A stretch of 64,000 bases of DNA from an uncultured Actinomycetes bacterium (GTDB taxonomy: Bacteria > Actinomycetota > Acidimicrobiia > IMCC26256 > DASPTH01), in contig CAVWLR010000009.1 in the NCBI GenBank assembly GCA_963755855.1, positions 538,244 to 602,243 on the forward strand, given 5' to 3'. Shown here piece after piece: positions 3,237 to 55,829 of this stretch. The first letter of the stretch is position 1, and each line of letters starts with the position of its first letter. A program made the position numbers and the translations under genes. The notes beneath the pieces were generated by a model, which made no database searches, was not told the origin of the DNA, and worked only from the letters and a program-made list of their open reading frames with translations.

Positions 3237-4457
3237 GTGCGCATTCGGAGCGGGGGGCTGCTCCCCTACTGCATCGTCGCCGGGAGCATGTCGCTCGGGT
3301 ACGGGTCGATCTACACGTTGCTCGCCGACCTGCGCGACCGCTACGGGTTCACCGAGGCCCAGCTCGGTTACATCGTCGCCGCCGGGTTCCTCGCCGGCTT
3401 CGTCACGCAGCTCGCGCTCGCCCGCCTCGCCGACCGCGGCTACGCGCCGCTGCTGGTGCACGGCGGGATCGTGCTCGCCATGGGGGCGATGATCGGCAGC
3501 GCCCTGGCCACCGAGTTCTGGGCGTTCCTCGTGGCGCGGCTCCTGCTCGGTCTCGGCAGCGGCGCGGTCGGACCGGCGATCCGGCGCATCGTCATCACGC
3601 GCGACCCCGACGCAGTGGGGGCCAACCTCGGACGCCTCGCCGCGTTCGACGTCGCCGGCTTCATGCTCGGGCCCCTCGTGGCCGCGGTCGTGGCCGAGGC
3701 GTTCGGCATCCGCGCCCCGTTCCTGTTCCTCGCGGTGGTGTTCGTCGGCGTGCTCGCGCTCGCCGTGCGCCTCGACCTCACCACCGGCGTCGCCGGCGCG
3801 GGCGGCGGCCGGGCGCTGCGATCCCTGCTCGTGCGGCCTGCGATCCAGGCGACGCTCGCGGCGAGCATCGCGTTCTACCTGACCGTCGGGATGTTCGAGG
3901 CGATCTGGGCGGTGTTGCTGCGCGACCACGGCGCCGAGACGTGGCTCATCGGGCTCACCCTGTCGATGTTCACGCTCCCCATGATCTTCCTCGCGCCGAT
4001 CGGCGGACGGAAGGCGCAGTCCCGCGGACCGTTGCGGGTCGTCGCGGTCAGCCTCACCGTGGCGACCGTCTGCACCTTCTCGTACGGCGTGCTGCCGAGC
4101 CTGTGGATGCTGCTGGCGGTGTCGCTGGTGCACGCGGTCGCCGACTCGTTCACCATGCCGAGCAACCAGGTGGCCGCCGCGCTCGGGAGCCCACCCGAGC
4201 ACCTCTCGGCGGCGCAGGGGCTCCTCGGGGCCACCGGACTCGCGGCCGCGGGCCTCACCGGGCTGGTCGCGGGGTTCGTGTACGAAGAGGCGGGCCGCTT
4301 CGCCGTCTGCACCGGCACCGCCGCCCTCATGCTCGTGTTCCTCGGGATCGCGCTCACCCTCGGCCGGCGCGACCTCGCCGACACGCCCGAGATGGTGGGC
4401 ACCGACGCGCCGCTCGCCCCCGACGCCATCGGCAGTGGCGTCCCCGACCTTCCCTGA
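3237..4457 (+). CDS. MFS transporter
   Basis: 406 aa and polytopic, with an MFS-type G-x-LaDRxG motif (LALARLADRGY). Confidence 0.8.
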   Translation: MRIRSGGLLPYCIVAGSMSLGYGSIYTLLADLRDRYGFTEAQLGYIVAAGFLAGFVTQLALARLADRGYAPLLVHGGIVLAMGAMIGSALATEFWAFLVARLLLGLGSGAVGPAIRRIVITRDPDAVGANLGRLAAFDVAGFMLGPLVAAVVAEAFGIRAPFLFLAVVFVGVLALAVRLDLTTGVAGAGGGRALRSLLVRPAIQATLAASIAFYLTVGMFEAIWAVLLRDHGAETWLIGLTLSMFTLPMIFLAPIGGRKAQSRGPLRVVAVSLTVATVCTFSYGVLPSLWMLLAVSLVHAVADSFTMPSNQVAAALGSPPEHLSAAQGLLGATGLAAAGLTGLVAGFVYEEAGRFAVCTGTAALMLVFLGIALTLGRRDLADTPEMVGTDAPLAPDAIGSGVPDLP

Positions 4458-5697: not shown

Positions 5698-6618
5698 CTA
5701 CGTCCGTGCAGCGAGCGCGGCGGTGAGGGCGGGGACCTCGGTGAGGCAGCGCAGCATGTCGTTGAGGTGCGTGCACGCCTGGAGCTCGGTGAGCGTGGTC
5801 TGCACGTCGGTGCGGAAGCTGTCGATCGGGCGGCCGACCAGGAGCACCACGTGCTCCGGTGCCCACTGGCACTCGAGGAACGGCAGCACGCGCGGCGTGG
5901 CGCGCACCGCGAGCAACGTGAGGTCGGTGGCGTCGACGGTGGCGACGACGTTGTACTCGTGCAGCGCCATCTCGGTGCCGTCGGGCTCCCAGTAGCTGTC
6001 GCGGAAGAACGAGTCGATCTCGAGGACGCCGTCGACGGGCGTGACGTCGACCCGACGGTGGCGCCGCATGCTCACCACCGGGCGTTCGGGGAACTCGTGC
6101 CACGCCAGTGCGTCGTCGTCGGTGACCAGCGCACCTGCGGTGCGGATCGCGTGCGCCGACTCGGTCTCGCCGGAGAAGGCCTGCTGCGCGGTGCCGCCGG
6201 GTCGCAGTCCGGAGCAGATGATCTTGCCCTTGCGCTGCCCGAAGCCCGACGGGGCCTGCTGCCGCCGGGCGGCGAACTCCGCGGGGTCCATGTGCCGGGT
6301 CCACACGAAGCCGGCGATGAGGCTCGTGCCGGCGATGTCGTCGAGGAGCACGTGCAATGGGGTGGCCGCTTCGCGTTCACCCGGGAGCACCTCGTCGATG
6401 GCACCGCGGAGGTACGTGCCGCCCTGCGCGCCGACGAGGCCCTCGATGCCCGGTCGCGCGGGCGTGGCCTCGATCGCGGTGATGCGGCGCTCCGGGTCGA
6501 CGACCGCGTGCATGGCCGCTTCGTCGACGACGACGGCCGCGCCGGCGTGCGTCGTGACGAGGTCGCGCGAGCGACCGAGGAGGTGGAGCGACGTGCCGAC
6601 GCCGTCGGGCCACACCAT
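5698..6618 (-). CDS. DUF2889 domain protein
   Basis: The C-terminal 307 aa of ORF 5698..7938 resemble DUF2889 (MALHEYNVVATVDATDLTLLAVRATPRVLPFLECQWAPEHVV). The upstream part of that ORF is shadow. Confidence 0.55.
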   Translation of the reverse strand: MVWPDGVGTSLHLLGRSRDLVTTHAGAAVVVDEAAMHAVVDPERRITAIEATPARPGIEGLVGAQGGTYLRGAIDEVLPGEREAATPLHVLLDDIAGTSLIAGFVWTRHMDPAEFAARRQQAPSGFGQRKGKIICSGLRPGGTAQQAFSGETESAHAIRTAGALVTDDDALAWHEFPERPVVSMRRHRRVDVTPVDGVLEIDSFFRDSYWEPDGTEMALHEYNVVATVDATDLTLLAVRATPRVLPFLECQWAPEHVVLLVGRPIDSFRTDVQTTLTELQACTHLNDMLRCLTEVPALTAALAART

Positions 6619-10634: not shown

Positions 10635-12254
10635 GTGTACGAGAGCTTCGCGACGGTGTGGGAGCGCGTGGCCGACGCGGTTCCCGATGCGCCGGCAGTC
10701 GTGCAGGGCGACCGACGCGTCACCTACGGCAAGATCGAGCACCGGGCGGCGAAGCTGACGAGCGCGCTCTCGGCGTGGGGTGTGGGTCACGACACCAAGG
10801 TCGCGCTGTTCCTGCACAACTGCCCCGAGTACATGGAGCTGCTGTTCGCGCTGTCGAAGCTGCGGGCGGTGCCGGCCAACGTCAACTTCCGCTACCTCGG
10901 CGACGAGCTCGTGCAGCTGGTCGACAACGCCGACGCCGAGGTGCTCGTCCACCACCGCTCGCTGCGCGACCGGGTCGATGCCGCGCGCGACCGCATGCCC
11001 GGCGTGCGCCACACCATCGAGATCGACGACGACGGCGCGACCGACTCGCGGTACGAGGAGCTCCTGCGCGACCACGAGCCGGCGCCACGGATCGAGCGCT
11101 CGGGCGACGACCTCCTCCTCTGGTACACCGGCGGCACGACCGGCCTGCCGAAGGGCGTGCTCTGGCACCAGGGCACGTTGCTGGGGTACGGCCTCATCGC
11201 CGCGTACGCCTTGCAGGACGAGACGCCCCCGGCCTCCGACGACGCGGACGCGCTCGACGAGCTGATCGCCGACGTGCAGCGCTGGCGGGCCCGCGGCACG
11301 CCGCTCGTCTCGCTCCTCACCACGCCGCTGGTGCACGCCACCGCGGTGCACCAGGCCAACACCGCGTTCGCGGTCGGCGGCACCATCGTGCTGCTCGAGC
11401 GCGGCGGCACCGACGGCGACACCATCTGCACGACCATCGCCCGCGAGCGGCCGAGCGTGCTCGAGATCGTGGGCGACGTCCTCATGCGTCGCGTCGCCGG
11501 CGCGCTCGACGGCGCCGACGAGCGCGGCGAGCCGTACGACCTGTCGTCGCTCCGCCGCATCCACAACTCGGGCGCGATGGTGAGCGCACCGCTGAAGGAC
11601 GCACTGCTGTCGCGCGGCACGATGCACGTGTACGACTCGCTGGGGTCGAGCGAGGCGGTGGGGTTCGGCGTCGCGCTCACCACCGAGGCCGGCGCCGGCG
11701 AGACCGCCCGCTTCCGCATCGGTCCGAACGCGCGCCTGCTCGTCGCCGCCGACGCAGACGAGCAGGTCGAGCCCGGCTCGGGACGGGTGGGCGTGCTCGC
11801 GGTGCACACGTCGTGCGCCACCGGGTACTACAAGGACCCGGCGCGCACCGCCGCCACCTTCCGCATGATCGACGGCCGGCTCCACGCCATCCCCGGCGAC
11901 CAGGCCACCCTCGACGCCGACGGCACGCTCACCCTCCTCGGCCGGGGCTCCAACTGCATCAACTCGGGCGGCGAGAAGATCTGGCCCGAGGAGGTCGAGG
12001 AGGTGCTGAAGGAGCACCCGGCGGTGACCGACGCCGTCGTCCTCGGCGTTGCTGACGACGAGTGGGGTCAGGTCGTTGCCGCGGTCGTCGCCACGACCGG
12101 CGACGACCCCCCCGACGCCGATGCGCTCGGCGACTGGGTCGGCGCGCGCCTCGCGGGCTACAAGCGCCCACGCCGGTTCGTCTTCGCCGACGAGGTCGGC
12201 CGCACCACCGTCGGCAAGCTCGACTACGAGTGGGCCCGTCAGGCCCTCCACTGA
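10635..12254 (+). CDS. acyl-CoA synthetase (AMP-dependent synthetase/ligase)
   Basis: Motifs LWYTGGTTGLPKGV and a C-terminal GKLDY. Confidence 0.85.
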   Translation: MYESFATVWERVADAVPDAPAVVQGDRRVTYGKIEHRAAKLTSALSAWGVGHDTKVALFLHNCPEYMELLFALSKLRAVPANVNFRYLGDELVQLVDNADAEVLVHHRSLRDRVDAARDRMPGVRHTIEIDDDGATDSRYEELLRDHEPAPRIERSGDDLLLWYTGGTTGLPKGVLWHQGTLLGYGLIAAYALQDETPPASDDADALDELIADVQRWRARGTPLVSLLTTPLVHATAVHQANTAFAVGGTIVLLERGGTDGDTICTTIARERPSVLEIVGDVLMRRVAGALDGADERGEPYDLSSLRRIHNSGAMVSAPLKDALLSRGTMHVYDSLGSSEAVGFGVALTTEAGAGETARFRIGPNARLLVAADADEQVEPGSGRVGVLAVHTSCATGYYKDPARTAATFRMIDGRLHAIPGDQATLDADGTLTLLGRGSNCINSGGEKIWPEEVEEVLKEHPAVTDAVVLGVADDEWGQVVAAVVATTGDDPPDADALGDWVGARLAGYKRPRRFVFADEVGRTTVGKLDYEWARQALH

Positions 12255-12319: not shown

Positions 12320-13180
12320 TCAGGCGAGGTGTTGACGCACGAGGGCGGCGGCTCTCGCCGTGTCCTCCTGCACGAAGAAGTGCGTGCCGGACACGGTGAT
12401 GAGCTCGACGCCGGCCCGGTCGGCCTGGGCCGCGAACATGCCTGCGGGGAGGTCGGTGCCGTCGGCGCAGACGATGGTGACGTCGGCGTGGAGCGACGCG
12501 AGATGCTCGAACGACGCGGGTGCGCCGTCGTCGCGCGTGCCGCACTCGAAGAACCACGCCTCGACCTCGGGTGGGCACGCGAGCTCGACCTGGCCGTCGG
12601 GGCGGTCGCGGAACCCCCACTGCACGTAGCCGGCGAGCGCTTCGTGCTCCATCACGTTCATCGGCGGGCGGCTGCCGTACGACGCGAGCACCGTCGCCCG
12701 ATCAGCCCACACCGGGCGGCGCTTCCGCGCCATCGCCGACATGTGGTTCTCGTTGCTCCGACCGGGCAGGCCGTCGATCGCGGCCATGGCGATGGCTTCG
12801 CAGAGCAGCAGCCGGCGGACGCGCCCCGGCTGCAACCGATCGACCAGGATCCCGGTGCCGCCGCCGAGCGATTCGCCCAGGATCACGACCTCGTCGAGGT
12901 CCAGGTGGTCGAGCATCGCCACCACGTCGCCGGCCGCGGCCACGAACCCGCAGTCCTCGAACGTCGTCGGTGCGTCGCTCGTCCCGTGCCCCCGCAGGTC
13001 GACGCCCACCACCCGGTGGTCGGCGGTCAACGCCCGGGCCAATGGGTCGAACACGCCGGCGCAGAAGCCGTTCGGATGGAGCAGGACCAGCGGCGGGCCG
13101 TCGCCGCCCCAGTCGAGCGCGCCGATGATGCGACCGTCGTGCTCGACCGTCCGGCGCTGCGGTTCATCGGCGTTCGGCAC
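12320..13180 (-). CDS. alpha/beta hydrolase
   Basis: Core VLLHPNGFCAGVF...GHGTSD...ILGESLGG. The likely start is GTG at 13180; ATG at 13255 is possible. Confidence 0.7.
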   Translation of the reverse strand: MPNADEPQRRTVEHDGRIIGALDWGGDGPPLVLLHPNGFCAGVFDPLARALTADHRVVGVDLRGHGTSDAPTTFEDCGFVAAAGDVVAMLDHLDLDEVVILGESLGGGTGILVDRLQPGRVRRLLLCEAIAMAAIDGLPGRSNENHMSAMARKRRPVWADRATVLASYGSRPPMNVMEHEALAGYVQWGFRDRPDGQVELACPPEVEAWFFECGTRDDGAPASFEHLASLHADVTIVCADGTDLPAGMFAAQADRAGVELITVSGTHFFVQEDTARAAALVRQHLA

Positions 13181-13253
13181 CCGGGGCAAGCTAGCTCTCG
13201 ATCGGGGCGCTCGACTGGCCCCGCCCACGCGCGCTTTGGGTATCCTGCCGGGC

Positions 13254-13376
13254 ATGCCGACCGCAGCTGGAAGCCGCTTGCGCTGTGAGCAGTGCGAGAC
13301 CGAGATCATCGTGGTGAAGGGCACCGACAACGAGGTGTCGTGTTGTGGGCAGGCGATGGCCGCCCGCGAGGGGTGA
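13254..13376 (+). CDS. desulforedoxin-like miniprotein (Cx2C-x15-CC)
   Basis: MPTAAGSRLRCEQCETEIIVVKGTDNEVSCCGQAMAAREG. Cysteine spacing is identical to the D. gigas desulforedoxin pattern C-x2-C...CCG-x2-M. Confidence 0.5.
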   Translation: MPTAAGSRLRCEQCETEIIVVKGTDNEVSCCGQAMAAREG

Positions 13377-13380
13377 CGAG

Positions 13381-13521
13381 ATGCCGAACCAGATGGGCAA
13401 GCGCTACACGTGCGCCGAGTGCGAGGCCACCGTGCTGGTCACGAAGGCCGGCGACGGCGAGCTGAGCTGCCACGGGGTGATGGAGATCGCCCAGGCGAAG
13501 CCGCTCCCCTCGTCCGACTGA
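13381..13521 (+). CDS. desulforedoxin-like miniprotein paralog (Cx2C-x15-CH variant)
   Basis: MPNQMGKRYTCAECEATVLVTKAGDGELSCHGVMEIAQAKPLPSSD. Starts 4 nt after the first copy. Confidence 0.5.
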   Translation: MPNQMGKRYTCAECEATVLVTKAGDGELSCHGVMEIAQAKPLPSSD

Positions 13522-13528
13522 TCACGTC

Positions 13529-13549
13529 GCGCCAGGACGTTCCTGGCGC
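13529..13549. repeat. 9-3-9 inverted repeat GCGCCAGGA-CGT-TCCTGGCGC
   Basis: Starts 8 nt after the miniprotein stop and ends 19 nt before the next gene start. Variant of the CAGAACGTTCTGG family. Confidence 0.65.
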
Positions 13550-13567: not shown

Positions 13568-15011
13568 GTGAACATCGCCATGATCCTCGAGATGGCGGCC
13601 GACGCCCTCGGGGACCGACTCGCCTACGGCACCCGCGCCGACGGCCTCTCGTACGAAGCCCTCCGGGCCGCTGCCCGCGGCATCGCCGACCGGGTCGACG
13701 GCACCGGCGCCGAGCGCCTGGCGCTCATGGAGTCGAACGCGCCGATCGTGCCCGCGACGCTCTTCGGCGCCGCCTGGGCCGGGGTGAGCTACGCGCCGCT
13801 CAACTACCGCCTCCCGGAGGCCCAGCTCGAGGCCTTGTTGGGCCGCATCGAGCCCGCGGTCGTGTCGGCGCCGCACTGGCTCGACAACAAGGGCACCAGC
13901 GAGCGCGCGTTCCCCGACGCACCCGAGGCCCCGGCGGTGCTGCTCTTCACCAGCGGCACGTCGGCCGAGCCCAAGGCCGCGATCCTCGAGCACGACCAGT
14001 TGCTCGCCTACATCTTCAACACGCTCGAGTTCGCGTCGGCCGGCGAGGACGAAGCCGCCATCGTCGTGGTGCCGCCGTTCCACGTTGCCGGCGTCGCCGC
14101 CGTGCTCAGCAACACCTACGTCGGTCGCCGCATCGTGCCCGTGCCCGGCGTGCGCTTCTCGCGCCGAGGACTGGCTCGTCACCGCGCGCGACGAGGGCGT
14201 CACCCACGCCATGCTCGTGCCCACCATGCTCGGCAAGATCGTCGAGGCCATGGAGGGCGACGAGTCGCTGCGGGTCCCGACGCTGCGGGCGCTCTCGTAC
14301 GGGGGCGCCAAGATGCACCCGTCGATCCTGCGGCGCGCGCTCGTGCTCTTCCCCGAGGTCGACTTCGTCAACGCCTACGGGCTCACCGAGACGAGCAGCA
14401 CCGTCGCCATCCTCGGACCCGACGACCACCGCCTCGCCCTCTACAGCGACGAGCCGCTCTTCACCGCCCGCCTCGGGTCGGTGGGCCAGCCGGTCCCGGG
14501 CATCGAGTTCCGCATCGTCGACGGCGAGGGCGCCACGCTCGGTCCCGACGAACCGGGCGAGATCCTCATCAAGGGCGACCAGGTCGGCGGCAAGTACGTG
14601 GGCACCGACTCGAAGGTCGACCCCGACGGGTGGCTCCACACCGGCGACCGCGGCTGGCTCGACATCGAGGGCTACGTGTTCTGCGAGGGACGCGCCGACG
14701 ACACCATCATCCGCGGCGGCGAGAACATCGGCCCCGCCGAGGTGGAGGACGCGCTCCTGCAGCACGACGCGATCTCGGTGGCCGCGGTGGTGGGTCTCGC
14801 CGACGAGCAGTACGGCGAGAAGATCGCGGCGATGATCTCGTTGCGCCCCGGTGTCGACGAGGTCGACCTCGACGCCGTCCGCGACTGGACGCGCGAGCGC
14901 ATCGGCGGTCTGAAGGCCCCGGAGATCATCGTGGTGGTCGAAGAGGTCCCGCAGACCGCCACGGGCAAGCTCCTCCGCCGCGAGGTCAAGCGGCTCCTCG
15001 AGGAGAACTAG
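13568..15011 (+). CDS. fatty-acid--CoA ligase (AMP-binding), single frameshift near 14160
   Basis: The N-terminal part (..PPFHVAGV..) is in the frame of ORF 13568. The C-terminal part (AEDWLVTARDEGVTHAMLVP ... GKLLRREV) is in the frame of ORF 14085. Joining them needs a 1-nt indel. Confidence 0.7.
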
Positions 15012-53573: not shown

Positions 53574-55829
53574 GTGTCGGGATTCCTAGACCGCCTGGGG
53601 CGACGTGCAGTTCGTCACCGGTGGTGGTTCATCAGCGTGTGGATCGTGGCCGCGGTCGGGATCGTCGCGCTCGCGGGCGCCCTCGACGGCCAGTTCAGCG
53701 ACAACTTCCGCATCCCGAACACGCAGTCGCAGGAGGCACTCGACCTCCTGGAGCGTGACTTCCCGAGCGCCGCCGGCGACAGCGCACTCGTCGTGTTCGA
53801 CACGAAGGACGGCATCACCGACCCGTCGGCGGAGCCCGCCATCAGCGCGAGCGTGACCGCGCTCGGCAAGATCCCCCACGTCACGACCGTGACGAACCCC
53901 TACGGCCCGGTGGGGAGCGCGTTCATCTCGAAGAGCGGCGACATCGCCATCGTCACCGTGCAGTTCGACACCAAGGCCCAGAACCTGCCGAAGGACGTCT
54001 TCCAGCAACTGGAGGACGCGACCGCGCCCGCGACCAAGGCCGGGGTCGACGTCGCGTACGGCGGTGCGGTCACCGACTACGCCGACCAACCGCCCTCGGG
54101 CAACGCCGACCTCATCGGACTGCTCGCGGCCGTCATCATCCTGTTGTTCGCGTTCGGCTCCGTCGTCGCGATGGGGCTCCCCATCCTCACCGCGCTCTTC
54201 GGCCTCGGCGTCGGCATCTCGCTGGTGCACGTGATCGCGTCGTTCACCGAGATCGGCACCGTCGCCCCGGTGCTCGCGACGATGATCGGACTCGGCGTCG
54301 GCATCGACTACTCCCTGTTCATCGTCACCCGCTACCGCGAGAACCTCGCGACGGGCCTCGACGTCGAGGCCGCGGTCGGGCGCTCCGTCGCCACCGCCGG
54401 TTCCGCGGTGCTCTTCGCCGGCACCACCGTCGTGATCGCGATCTGCGGGCTCCTGGTCTCCGGCATCCCGTACGTCGCGCGCCTCGGCTACATGGCCGGG
54501 CTGGTCGTCGCGGTGATGATGCTCGCGGCGCTCACGTTCCTCCCCGCCATCATCGGCGCGGTCGGTCACGGCATCGACCGTTGGAAGGTGCCGAGCCTCC
54601 TCCACCACCCCGACCGCGCGGTCAGGGAGGGTCGTGACCCCGAGCCGCCCGCAGGCTCGGTCTGGGAGCGCTGGGCCACGCTCGTGGCGCGCCACGCGTG
54701 GCCGTTCGCAATCTTCGCGGTGGTGATCCTCCTCGTCATCGCGATGCCGGTGCTGTCGATGCGTCTCGGCGAGTCCGACGACGGCAACCTGCCGAAGTCC
54801 ACCACCCAGCGTCAGGCCTACGACCTCGTGGCGAAGGGCTTCGGTCCCGGCACCAACGGGCCGCTCGTCGTCGTCGTGCAACTGCCCTCCTCCGGTGACG
54901 CCGCCGTGCTCGCCGACGTGTCGAGCGCGCTCGAGAAGACCCCCGGCGTGCAGGCGGTGCTGCCCGCGCAGACCAGCCCGAACGGCGCGGTCGCCCAGAT
55001 CGCCGTGCTGCCGACCACCGCGCCCGACAGCGCGCAGACCGCCGATCTCGTGGGGACGCTGCGCAGCTCCGTGCTGCCCGCCGCCGTCGGCACCAGCGGC
55101 GCCCAGGCCTACGTGGGCGGGGTCACGGCCTCGTTCATCGACATCGGTGACCGCATCAGCAGCCGACTGCCCTACTTCATCGGCGCGGTCGTGCTGCTCT
55201 CGTTCATCCTGCTGCTGCTCGTGTTCCACTCGGTCCTGGTGCCGCTCACCGCCGCGGTGATGAACCTGCTGTCGGTGGCGGCGGCGTACGGCGCCACGGT
55301 CGCGGTGTTCCAGTGGGGCTGGGCGAAGGGGCTCGTCGGACTCGAGTCGACGGTGCCCATCGTGCCGTTCGTGCCCATGATGATGTTCGCCGTCCTCTTC
55401 GGCCTGTCGATGGACTACCAGGTGTTCCTGCTCACACGTGTGCGCGAGGAGTACGACAAGTCCGGCGACACGCGCCAGGGTGTGGTGCAGGGGCTGGCAC
55501 GCACTGCGCGCGTCATCACGTCGGCGGCGCTGATCATGATCTTCGTGTTCGGCGCGTTCGTGCTGAACCCGACGCCCGAGGTGAAGATGTTCGGGCTCGG
55601 GCTCGCGTTCGCGGTGCTCGTCGACGCGACCATCGTGCGCATGATGCTGGTGCCGTCGATCATGGAGATCCTCGGCGACGCCAACTGGTGGTTCCCGAAG
55701 TGGCTCGGCTTCCTCCCCCGCCTCGACATCGAGGGCGGCACCGACGAGCAGCCGGAGCCCGCCGCGCCTGACTCGCCTGACGCGCCCGACGCGCCGGACT
55801 CGCCCGACCGCGTCCCCGCCGAGGTCTAG
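53574..55829 (+). CDS. MMPL family RND-type transporter
   Basis: 751 aa with two TM bundles and MMPL motifs. GTG start. Confidence 0.85.
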   Translation: MSGFLDRLGRRAVRHRWWFISVWIVAAVGIVALAGALDGQFSDNFRIPNTQSQEALDLLERDFPSAAGDSALVVFDTKDGITDPSAEPAISASVTALGKIPHVTTVTNPYGPVGSAFISKSGDIAIVTVQFDTKAQNLPKDVFQQLEDATAPATKAGVDVAYGGAVTDYADQPPSGNADLIGLLAAVIILLFAFGSVVAMGLPILTALFGLGVGISLVHVIASFTEIGTVAPVLATMIGLGVGIDYSLFIVTRYRENLATGLDVEAAVGRSVATAGSAVLFAGTTVVIAICGLLVSGIPYVARLGYMAGLVVAVMMLAALTFLPAIIGAVGHGIDRWKVPSLLHHPDRAVREGRDPEPPAGSVWERWATLVARHAWPFAIFAVVILLVIAMPVLSMRLGESDDGNLPKSTTQRQAYDLVAKGFGPGTNGPLVVVVQLPSSGDAAVLADVSSALEKTPGVQAVLPAQTSPNGAVAQIAVLPTTAPDSAQTADLVGTLRSSVLPAAVGTSGAQAYVGGVTASFIDIGDRISSRLPYFIGAVVLLSFILLLLVFHSVLVPLTAAVMNLLSVAAAYGATVAVFQWGWAKGLVGLESTVPIVPFVPMMMFAVLFGLSMDYQVFLLTRVREEYDKSGDTRQGVVQGLARTARVITSAALIMIFVFGAFVLNPTPEVKMFGLGLAFAVLVDATIVRMMLVPSIMEILGDANWWFPKWLGFLPRLDIEGGTDEQPEPAAPDSPDAPDAPDSPDRVPAEV

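Follow-up and report, generated by a model that had tools for sequence, protein, structure and literature searches.

A conserved pair of desulforedoxin-like miniproteins, one with a Cys3His site and an invariant C-terminal tail, encoded beside an acyl-CoA ligase gene in an uncultured member of the Acidimicrobiia

The DNA analysed here, referred to as the window, is the whole stretch of 64,000 nucleotides taken from contig CAVWLR010000009.1 of an uncultured Acidimicrobiia bacterium (assembly GCA_963755855.1, positions 538,244 to 602,243 of the forward strand), and all positions below are counted from its first letter. It encodes on the plus strand two tandem miniproteins, open reading frame 1 (ORF1, or O1) and open reading frame 2 (ORF2, or O2), which are paralogous proteins of the desulforedoxin (Dx) fold with a Cys4 and a Cys3His site, respectively; their identity is secure. 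ORF1 (13254-13376) encodes an untailed Dx-like protein of 40 amino acids (aa), MPTAAGSRLRCEQCETEIIVVKGTDNEVSCCGQAMAAREG, with the pattern C11-x2-C14-x15-C30-C31-G, and the codons of its four ligands lie at 13284-13286, 13293-13295, 13341-13343, and 13344-13346. ORF2 (13381-13521) encodes a tailed Dx-like protein of 46 aa, MPNQMGKRYTCAECEATVLVTKAGDGELSCHGVMEIAQAKPLPSSD, with the pattern C11-x2-C14-x15-C30-H31-G (ligand codons 13411-13413, 13420-13422, 13468-13470, and 13471-13473), ending in the tail K-P-L-P-S-S-D-COOH, which is encoded at 13498-13518 and followed by the stop codon at 13519-13521. The two ORFs lie in different frames with a gap of 4 nt (13377-13380), and a Shine-Dalgarno-like GAGGGG for ORF2, read from the sequence, is located at 13368-13373, within the final codons of ORF1 (..R-E-G-stop) and 7 nt 5' of the ORF2 ATG. 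Lengths, Cys and His patterns, coordinates, and spacing agree with those given in an earlier reading of the window made without database searches (hereafter the sequence-only reading), which overlooked that the pair is a conserved module, that the C-terminal tail of ORF2 is invariant, and that adjacency to a ligase gene is conserved.

Both ORFs are genuine genes under purifying selection. Six-frame translation of the window gave three matches to the motif C-x2-C-x15-C-[CH], compared with 0.065 in residue-shuffled translations, the third match being an Arg/Pro-rich junk frame at 54949. The GC content at third codon positions (GC3) is 0.83 in ORF1 and 0.98 in ORF2, typical of coding sequence, the window as a whole having 72% GC. 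Across the homologous loci (n=84), nucleotide diversity at codon positions 1/2/3 was 0.20/0.19/0.40 for ORF1 and 0.15/0.14/0.36 for ORF2, and this diversity at third positions, about twice that at positions 1 and 2, indicates purifying selection on both frames. Many spurious ORFs do arise in DNA of high GC content, several of them overlapping the ORF1-ORF2 region, and the Cys patterns could on that basis be accidents of a GC-rich intergenic region. However, the enrichment of the motif over shuffled sequences, the hundreds of conserved homologues across phyla with synonymous-biased substitutions, the annotation of these genes in cultured genomes, and the confident fold prediction for ORF2 leave this explanation with practically no probability; chance ORFs or non-coding GC-rich sequence are ruled out, with near certainty, by the conservation data.

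The suggestion that such miniproteins are missed by gene callers holds for ORF1, for which only 26 homologous clusters at 90% identity were found, compared with 197 for ORF2 (262 with a fused query), even though the gene is present at every locus; it was left uncalled at loci L001, L002, and L004. The 40-aa gene is under-annotated about ten-fold relative to its partner, which is normally of 47 aa. The ORF2 of the window is one residue short of this norm (CHGV-MEIA instead of CHGVAMEIA, at 13471-13485, residues 31-35), and the same 46-aa variant is present as an independent database entry, P0275. The ATG of ORF1 lies within a palindrome, GCATGC, that supplies a minus-strand ATG as well. Measured by its longest ORF, the divergently transcribed alpha/beta hydrolase gene (12320-13180, minus strand) runs over the start of ORF1 to position 13330. 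The extension at 13181-13330 has a GC3 of 0.78 and a GC content at second codon positions of 0.68, resembling non-coding DNA, and the hydrolase start was placed near 13180 because its homologues start there and the composition of the 5' extension is unlike that of the coding body.

The Cys spacing had been likened in the sequence-only reading to that of Dx and of the Dx domain of desulfoferrodoxin (Dfx), and this assignment is supported. In the profile search proposed there, PF06397 (Desulfoferrod_N) is the top Pfam match of both ORF1 (19.1 bits) and ORF2 (17.1 bits), in both cases below the gathering cut-off of 23. This cut-off is passed by orthologues from sediment lineages (37.9 and 39.6 bits) and by fused forms (42.7 and 46.3 bits), and many close homologues of the two ORFs carry a precomputed PF06397 match. 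The score against TIGR00319 was 16.5 bits, the curated cut-off being 36.05. When a profile of the ORF2 family was compared with the PDB, the top four matches were to desulfoferrodoxin (2JI2, E=0.0035) and desulforedoxin (1CFW/1DXG, E=0.018), with the Cys residues in register; single-sequence searches of the PDB returned insignificant matches only (ribosomal protein S27e and a designed repeat protein). The AlphaFold2 model of ORF2, built from a 52-sequence alignment, reached a mean predicted local distance difference test score (pLDDT) of 90.7, its tail (residues 41-46) having a mean of 75 and no secondary structure. In a Foldseek search of the PDB with this model, the top six matches were all Dfx or Dx, and it superposed on 1DXG_A with a root-mean-square deviation of 0.8 Å over 36 columns, a target-normalised template modelling score of 0.90, and a probability of 1.0. 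The ORF1 family was placed onto the ORF2 domain by MAFFT, which identifies the two as paralogues. The Dx ligand spacing C-x2-C-x15-C-C itself is present in ORF1 and departed from in ORF2 (C11, C14, C30, H31).

From rank 7 downwards, the Foldseek matches of the ORF2 model were weak ones to RNA polymerase and MCM zinc ribbons (probability below 0.4). These matches, the frequent binding of nucleic acids or proteins by zinc ribbons, and a conserved basic G-K-R-Y motif ahead of the first ligand would fit a small metal- or redox-sensing regulator, such as an anti-activator or a zinc-ribbon nucleic-acid binder, acting on the catabolic operons in which the pair is found. However, the matches to nucleic-acid-binding ribbons are insignificant, nothing in the tail suggests binding of DNA or RNA, and the operons already hold TetR, GntR, or MarR regulators, making a regulatory role for the pair very improbable.

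The pairing of ORF1 and ORF2 is obligatory, either as adjacent genes or as a fusion. Among GTDB species representatives, scanning yielded 128 relatives, and 80 loci were retained; these stem almost exclusively from metagenome-assembled genomes (MAGs) of Acidimicrobiia, and the rest belong to Frankia and Pseudofrankia, Gordonia, Nocardia, and one Chloroflexi MAG. In 79 of 84 loci, ORF2 is immediately preceded by a four-Cys ORF1, and the remaining five are two contig edges and three Frankia fusions; setting these aside, the paired ORFs, including the co-occurrence of CC and CH copies asked about in the sequence-only reading, are kept in 79/79 testable actinobacterial loci. The ORF1 stop and the ORF2 start are separated by -20 to +40 nt, most often by +4, which suggests translational coupling, and the conserved ORF1 C-terminus ..AREG coincides with the Shine-Dalgarno-like GAGGGG of ORF2. 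In the Frankia and Pseudofrankia loci (L083-L085, near locus positions 5890-6141), ORF1 and ORF2 form one in-frame fusion. None of the four Cys is left in its ORF1 domain (GARLRDDATGTEAVVVRISAESSLELRAGG), the ORF2 domain retains its Cys3His ligands and tail, and a strong GC-rich hairpin lies 3' of the gene. At the Chloroflexi locus, ORF2 has CC instead of CH and keeps the tail; in this MAG (L086, around 3740-4020), a canonical intrinsic terminator (GC stem and T-run) lies 3' of the pair, which has no adjacent ligase gene and is located about 2 kb downstream of a PaaI-type thioesterase gene. Sediment and wetland lineages possess a tandem of an untailed Dx-like ORF1 (MANQVGKRYVCKKCGAEFIVTRGGNGTLHCCGQPMELKK) and a tailed CC-type ORF2, with all eight Cys kept. 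Fused forms were found in cultured Rhodococcus, Mycobacterium, Streptomyces, Sphingomonas, and Frankia, those of Rhodococcus, Mycobacterium, Streptomyces, and sphingomonads having about 100 aa.

The family is large, comprising at least 966 clusters at 50% identity: when 1.84 billion representatives were searched exhaustively with a profile, 966 clusters were matched at E<=1e-3 and 158 at E<=1e-10, and a metagenome scan with CC-type members gave at least 582 relatives. Fusions with an ORF1-like domain followed by an ORF2-like domain account for 54 of 143 representative clusters. A third architecture was also observed, in which an unrelated N-terminal domain of about 60 aa without a Pfam match (..L..RP..F.W..) takes the place of ORF1; these proteins of 104-118 aa (P0216, P0228, P0231, P0239, P0241, P0253, P0255, P0267, and P0289) have a tailed domain of the CC type, except for P0216, where it is of the CH type. 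Some entries are probable artefacts: P0001 probably joins the ORF1 frame by a frameshift to an upstream extension of the ORF2 frame, and P0028 (with an internal LVTKAG duplication) and P0283 (ORF1 N-terminus with ORF2 tail) probably stem from assembly or gene calling.

Among 112 full-length homologues of ORF2, numbered to D47 according to the 47-aa norm (the window protein ends at residue 46), the residues N3, G6, R8, Y9, C11, C14, T21, G24, C30, H31, M35, P44, S46, and D47 are invariant, and K7, K22, G26, P42, L43, and S45 are conserved in 111. The His in place of the fourth Cys, pointed out in the sequence-only reading, is present in 112/112 of these close homologues and is a fixed feature of the lineage, and its effect on the metal site of ORF2 is plausible. 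Across the wider family, the tail follows the consensus [A/P]-[K/R]-x-L-P-S-S-D-COOH, and in 111 tail-bearing representative clusters the terminal D is present in all 111, P at position -4 in 103, and L at position -5 in 95. The metal ligands are far from constant in the same 111 clusters, with CCCC in 44, CCCH in 34, CCCD in 4, and a ligand-poor set in about 29, the latter lacking Cys ligands in the tailed domain and still holding the GKRY motif and the tail. Many fusions have a tailed domain without any Cys that retains the GKRY motif, the beta-hairpin residues, and the tail. The fourth ligand position runs through the series Cys, His, Asp, and the ligand-poor forms often possess Asp at positions 1 and 4 (DGVD, DTVD, DLVD, and the like), a pattern that suggests carboxylate replacement or a salt bridge and not random decay.

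The pair lies between a hydrolase and a CoA ligase gene, as described in the sequence-only reading, which saw in this setting no recognisable redox operon; the flanks were confirmed, and the adjacency to the ligase is not incidental but proved to be the most conserved feature of the neighbourhood. In the window and close relatives, the order is a ligase paralogue (10635-12254, plus strand, AMP-binding), the alpha/beta hydrolase (minus strand), ORF1-ORF2 (plus), the adjoining adenylate-forming (AMP-binding, acyl-CoA) ligase (13568-15011, plus), a chlorophyllase-like hydrolase (minus), and a ferredoxin (minus). The adjoining ligase gene is read in two frames, with a change at about 14160-14165 (within 14137-14170, reading ..GTGCGCTTCTCGCGCCGAGGACTGG.. 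where intact orthologues read ..RFSA(E/K)DW..), pointing to a 1-nt insertion; this may be an assembly indel rather than the mark of a pseudogene, because the ligase genes of the close relatives L001 and L002, which come from assemblies of the same type, are split as well. In other Acidimicrobiia, the order is thiolase, 4HBT thioesterase, CaiB-type CoA-transferase, APH kinase, the pair, enoyl-CoA hydratase or ligase, and short-chain dehydrogenases (SDRs). Nocardia and Gordonia possess an SDR (in Nocardia), the pair, a double CaiB-family CoA-transferase, and two ORFs that by the look of their sequences alone resemble acyl-CoA dehydrogenases. The sediment operons have all genes on one strand in the order hydratase-hydratase-ligase-[ORF1-ORF2], followed by at least one gene for an HDAC-like protein, a cysteine-protease-like/TPR protein, a nitronate monooxygenase, a metallo-beta-lactamase, or an alpha/beta hydrolase, and then by CaiB-CaiB; the alpha/beta hydrolase in some of them is homologous to that of the window.

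Seven annotated megaplasmid regions were also examined (Rhodococcus, three; Mycobacterium branderi, Streptomyces, Sphingomonas, and Sphingobium). In 7/7 of them, the fused gene is annotated as "hypothetical protein" and directly adjoins a gene whose annotation reads "class I adenylate-forming", "fatty acid--CoA ligase", or "AMP-binding", with gaps down to 2-16 nt, in surroundings of CaiB/BaiF, crotonase, SDR, acyl-CoA dehydrogenase, and thiolase/OB-fold genes. A same-strand ligase gene was found within 2.5 kb of the pair in 51/67 actinobacterial, 11/12 sediment, and 7/7 plasmid loci. The pair-adjacent ligases of the window, Rhodococcus, Mycobacterium, Streptomyces, sphingomonads, and sediment bacteria group as one clade by neighbour-joining, and this clade does not include the non-adjacent upstream paralogue present in the window and in its relatives. 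Other neighbours are more restricted. An APH kinase gene lies within 2.5 kb in 25/67 actinobacterial loci, in 0/12 sediment and 0/7 plasmid loci, and not in the window, so that it was rejected as a universal partner. A protein of about 219 aa recurs directly 3' of ORF2 in sediment loci (L095, L108, L112, L122, L138, L150, L154, L166, and others), with C-terminal TPR repeats according to Pfam and an N-terminal G-N-C-L-G, read by eye as transglutaminase- or cysteine-protease-like, and an HDAC-family deacylase also recurs downstream of sediment ORF2. TPR domains are able to clamp C-terminal peptides, and the TPR and HDAC-like proteins could be lineage-specific receptors of the tail; as universal receptors they were rejected, being absent from all actinobacterial loci. 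In Rhodococcus sp. DK17 plasmid pDK3 (L169, 5049-11099) and R. rhodochrous (L175, 4085-9475), the order is fdxA, ligase, fusion, CaiB, (CaiB), crotonase, and SDR; the metal ligands of the fused protein are decayed, and its operon begins with the ferredoxin gene fdxA. The 3-hydroxyphenylpropionate hydroxylase and extradiol dioxygenase genes near these two operons hint that they may belong to an aromatic-acid side-chain pathway.

The spacer between ORF2 and the ligase gene contains the perfect hairpin gcgccagga-cgt-tcctggcgc (13529-13549; 9-bp stem, 3-nt loop) reported in the sequence-only reading, which folds within a structure of -27.3 kcal/mol. The hairpin is real but lineage-specific: its sequence is not conserved in the closest relatives, in which the spacer varies in sequence and structure, and conservation is confined to the GGGGG ribosome-binding site and the beginning of the ligase gene. 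The hairpin lacks a T-run, terminator prediction did not report it, and no Rfam family matches the region. A role as a conserved terminator or attenuator was rejected on these grounds.

The metal ligands can be lost from the tailed domain, and the tail, the GKRY motif, and the position next to the ligase are not. For this reason, protein docking through the tail, most likely on the ligase module, is tentatively favoured as the conserved function of the pair, the metals serving mainly to fold the tiny domains. Under this proposal, ORF1 and ORF2 would be co-translated and form a heterodimer shaped like the Dx homodimer, given that their pairing is obligatory, that natural fusions follow the gene order, and that Dx itself is dimeric. 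ORF1 would hold its metal with four Cys and ORF2 with three Cys and one His, the latter site being more likely to bind Zn or a tuned Fe than to form a classical Fe(Cys)4 centre. The flexible invariant tail of ORF2 (..KPLPSSD-COOH) would dock into an enzyme encoded in the same operon, for which the adjacent ligase is the most probable candidate, and the metal sites would chiefly keep the domains folded instead of acting primarily as electron carriers. The pair would be a small accessory component of an acyl-CoA catabolic module built on one clade of adenylate-forming (CoA) ligase.

A redox function is the main rival reading, unlikely, albeit far from negligible. According to it, the pair is a heterodimeric desulforedoxin with an Fe(Cys)4 and an Fe(Cys)3His centre that passes electrons to or from an oxidoreductase of the operon; this partner would be a nitronate-monooxygenase-like flavoenzyme, an acyl-CoA dehydrogenase, or a P450, onto which the tail docks, the His tuning the potential. 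The closest sequence and fold matches, Dx and domain I of Dfx, are Fe(Cys)4 redox centres, as are all characterised members of the fold, and the sediment and wetland versions, with all eight Cys intact, score above the Pfam cut-off. No ligand varies in the lineage of the window, and operons of the family hold genes for nitronate monooxygenase (an FMN enzyme), acyl-CoA dehydrogenase, SDR, and P450. In addition, the ligand-less Rhodococcus fusion shares its operon with a ferredoxin (fdxA-ligase-fusion), which could be a functional replacement. However, many orthologues without some or all of the ligands keep the tail and the operon position, so the function of the family as a whole cannot rest on a redox metal. 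No neighbour is as constant or as closely spaced as the ligase, which is not a redox enzyme, and Cys3His is more usual for structural Zn than for mononuclear Fe.

Several observations weigh against the favoured proposal. All eight ligands are invariant in the lineage of the window, ferredoxin genes are common nearby, and every characterised Dx-domain protein is, to our knowledge, redox-active. In 16 of the 67 actinobacterial loci, no ligase gene lies within 2.5 kb, the neighbour there being an enoyl-CoA hydratase or an APH-type kinase, and in some sediment operons a family-I CoA-transferase takes the place of the ligase; since some loci have no nearby ligase, the partner could be another enzyme of the pathway. 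The neighbour-joining ligase tree has only one outgroup clade, and the AlphaFold prediction for the 81-aa fused protein P0003 was uninformative (pLDDT 59.6). P0003 joins the two reading frames in frame, and its source is a single 3.8-kb metagenome contig.

The constant adenylating neighbour also allows a carrier function to be envisaged, in which ORF2 would be LysW- or ubiquitin-like, its C-terminal Asp being activated by the adjacent adenylate-forming enzyme and linked to an intermediate or to CoA; this is improbable. The operon hydrolases would then release the product, with ORF1 as an obligate structural partner, and in an equally improbable variant an acyl group would be loaded onto the tail, with chemistry or CoA donation taking place on the protein-tethered intermediate. 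A small metal-ribbon domain with a flexible tail that ends in an invariant acidic residue after small residues (S/A/G-S/A/G-D) resembles the layout of LysW (..EDWGE), and hydrolases are found beside sediment ORF2 (HDAC-like, metallo-beta-lactamase, alpha/beta hydrolase, amidohydrolase, and cysteine-protease-like/TPR) as well as next to the pair in the window, where an alpha/beta hydrolase adjoins it. Against this, no enzyme of the adenylate-forming superfamily is known to activate a protein C-terminus, the usual ..T-G-K.. catalytic motif is intact at the C-terminal end of the adjacent ligase, neither an ATP-grasp nor an E1-like enzyme was found nearby, and the remaining enzymes of the operons (enoyl-CoA hydratase, CoA-transferases, SDR, acyl-CoA dehydrogenase, and thiolase) use free CoA esters. 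If true, it would be the first carrier or "tag" system run by the acyl-CoA-synthetase superfamily and not by an ATP-grasp, E1-like, or glutamine-synthetase-like ligase.

If docking on the ligase makes the pair an obligatory accessory, such ligases could owe a low activity in heterologous hosts to the lack of their small subunit, and a new protein-peptide docking motif would be defined. The natural series of Cys4, Cys3His, Cys3Asp, and ligand-free sites represents a ready system for studying the loss of a metal site with function kept.

Among known systems, Dx of Desulfovibrio gigas (1DXG, PF06397) is similar to ORF1 in size class and in its C-x2-C-x15-CC spacing; its flanking residues agree as well (G-x-x-Y-x-C..C...V.V...G.G.L.C[C/H]G..M), and the ORF2 model superposes closely on it. 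It is a two-chain dimer, which fits an arrangement of two genes or of two fused domains. However, Dx is a homodimer encoded by a single gene, whereas the present system consists of two diverged paralogues that are always together, of which only the second has the KPLPSSD tail and a His ligand; we know of no conserved C-terminal tail on Dx. Unlike Dx, some orthologues of the pair are ligand-free, the context is acyl-CoA metabolism, and the hosts include actinobacteria of cultured genera (Rhodococcus and Mycobacterium, for example) and not only sulfate reducers. Centre I of desulfoferrodoxin, or 2Fe superoxide reductase (2JI1, 1DFX, 1VZG), gave the best profile and Foldseek matches with the same ligand register, and its Dx domain is a module of a larger polypeptide, as in the fused forms described here. 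It differs in that no superoxide-reductase catalytic domain, with its His4Cys Fe centre, is present in ORF1, ORF2, or the neighbouring genes; both miniproteins stop behind the Dx-like domain, and the scores against TIGR00320 (14.4 and 15.6 bits, cut-off 146.9) place the pair outside desulfoferrodoxin.

Other comparisons concern arrangement or function, the nearest functional analogies being MbtH-like proteins, LysW, and LvaB. The rubA/rubB genes of actinobacterial alkane hydroxylase clusters are likewise two small adjacent genes for Cys-ligated metal proteins in a catabolic cluster. However, rubredoxin has another fold, in which about 29 residues separate its two C-x2-C knuckles; alkB is absent here, and rubA/rubB lack the tail motif and the coupling to a ligase, and no rubredoxin family is among the Pfam matches of ORF1 and ORF2 at E<=10. 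LysW is likewise a miniprotein with a metal ribbon, has about 50 aa and a flexible C-terminal tail with a conserved acidic residue at its end, and is encoded in a pathway operon. The resemblance is one of functional analogy only, as LysW differs in fold family, in tail (EDWGE), and in its partner, the ATP-grasp ligase LysX; the tail here is KPLPSSD, and no ATP-grasp (LysX/ArgX) family or LysW pathway enzyme is among the recurrent neighbours. MbtH-like proteins are small accessories encoded beside adenylate-forming enzymes, which they bind and activate, and again offer a functional analogy only: they have no sequence or fold relation to the pair, possess neither a metal site nor the tail motif, and serve adenylation domains of non-ribosomal peptide synthetases, and neither ORF has a PF03621 match in Pfam or an MbtH-like match in NCBIfam. 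The levulinate operon lvaABCDE of Pseudomonas putida, as summarised in PMC6692424 (citing Rand et al. 2017), encodes LvaB, a hypothetical protein of about 12 kDa that binds the kinase LvaA and is needed for growth on levulinic acid, together with an APH-type kinase, an acyl-CoA-dehydrogenase-like enzyme, an SDR, and an acyl-CoA synthetase. By that description only, LvaB is reminiscent of the many loci that show an APH kinase followed by the pair, and of the fused form of about 100 aa, but the kinase is absent from the neighbourhood of the pair in the window and from the sediment and most plasmid loci.

Neither Pfam nor NCBIfam holds a model specific for the ORF1/ORF2 family, public databases name its members "hypothetical" or at best "desulfoferrodoxin-like iron-binding protein", and full-text literature searches returned nothing relevant on the tail motif or on Dx-like proteins in this context. 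The fold is already known; the architecture of the subfamily, its tail motif, its ligand series, and its operon linkage are undescribed. Desulforedoxin is commonly viewed as a peculiarity of sulfate reducers and as the domain with which 2Fe superoxide reductases begin. The proteins described here constitute a large unnamed branch of the same fold, present in Acidimicrobiia, Frankia, Nocardia, Rhodococcus, Mycobacterium, Streptomyces, sphingomonads, Chloroflexi, and many sediment and wetland bacteria, always as a hetero-pair or a fusion, and tied to one clade of acyl-CoA ligase in catabolic operons of a beta-oxidation-like type.

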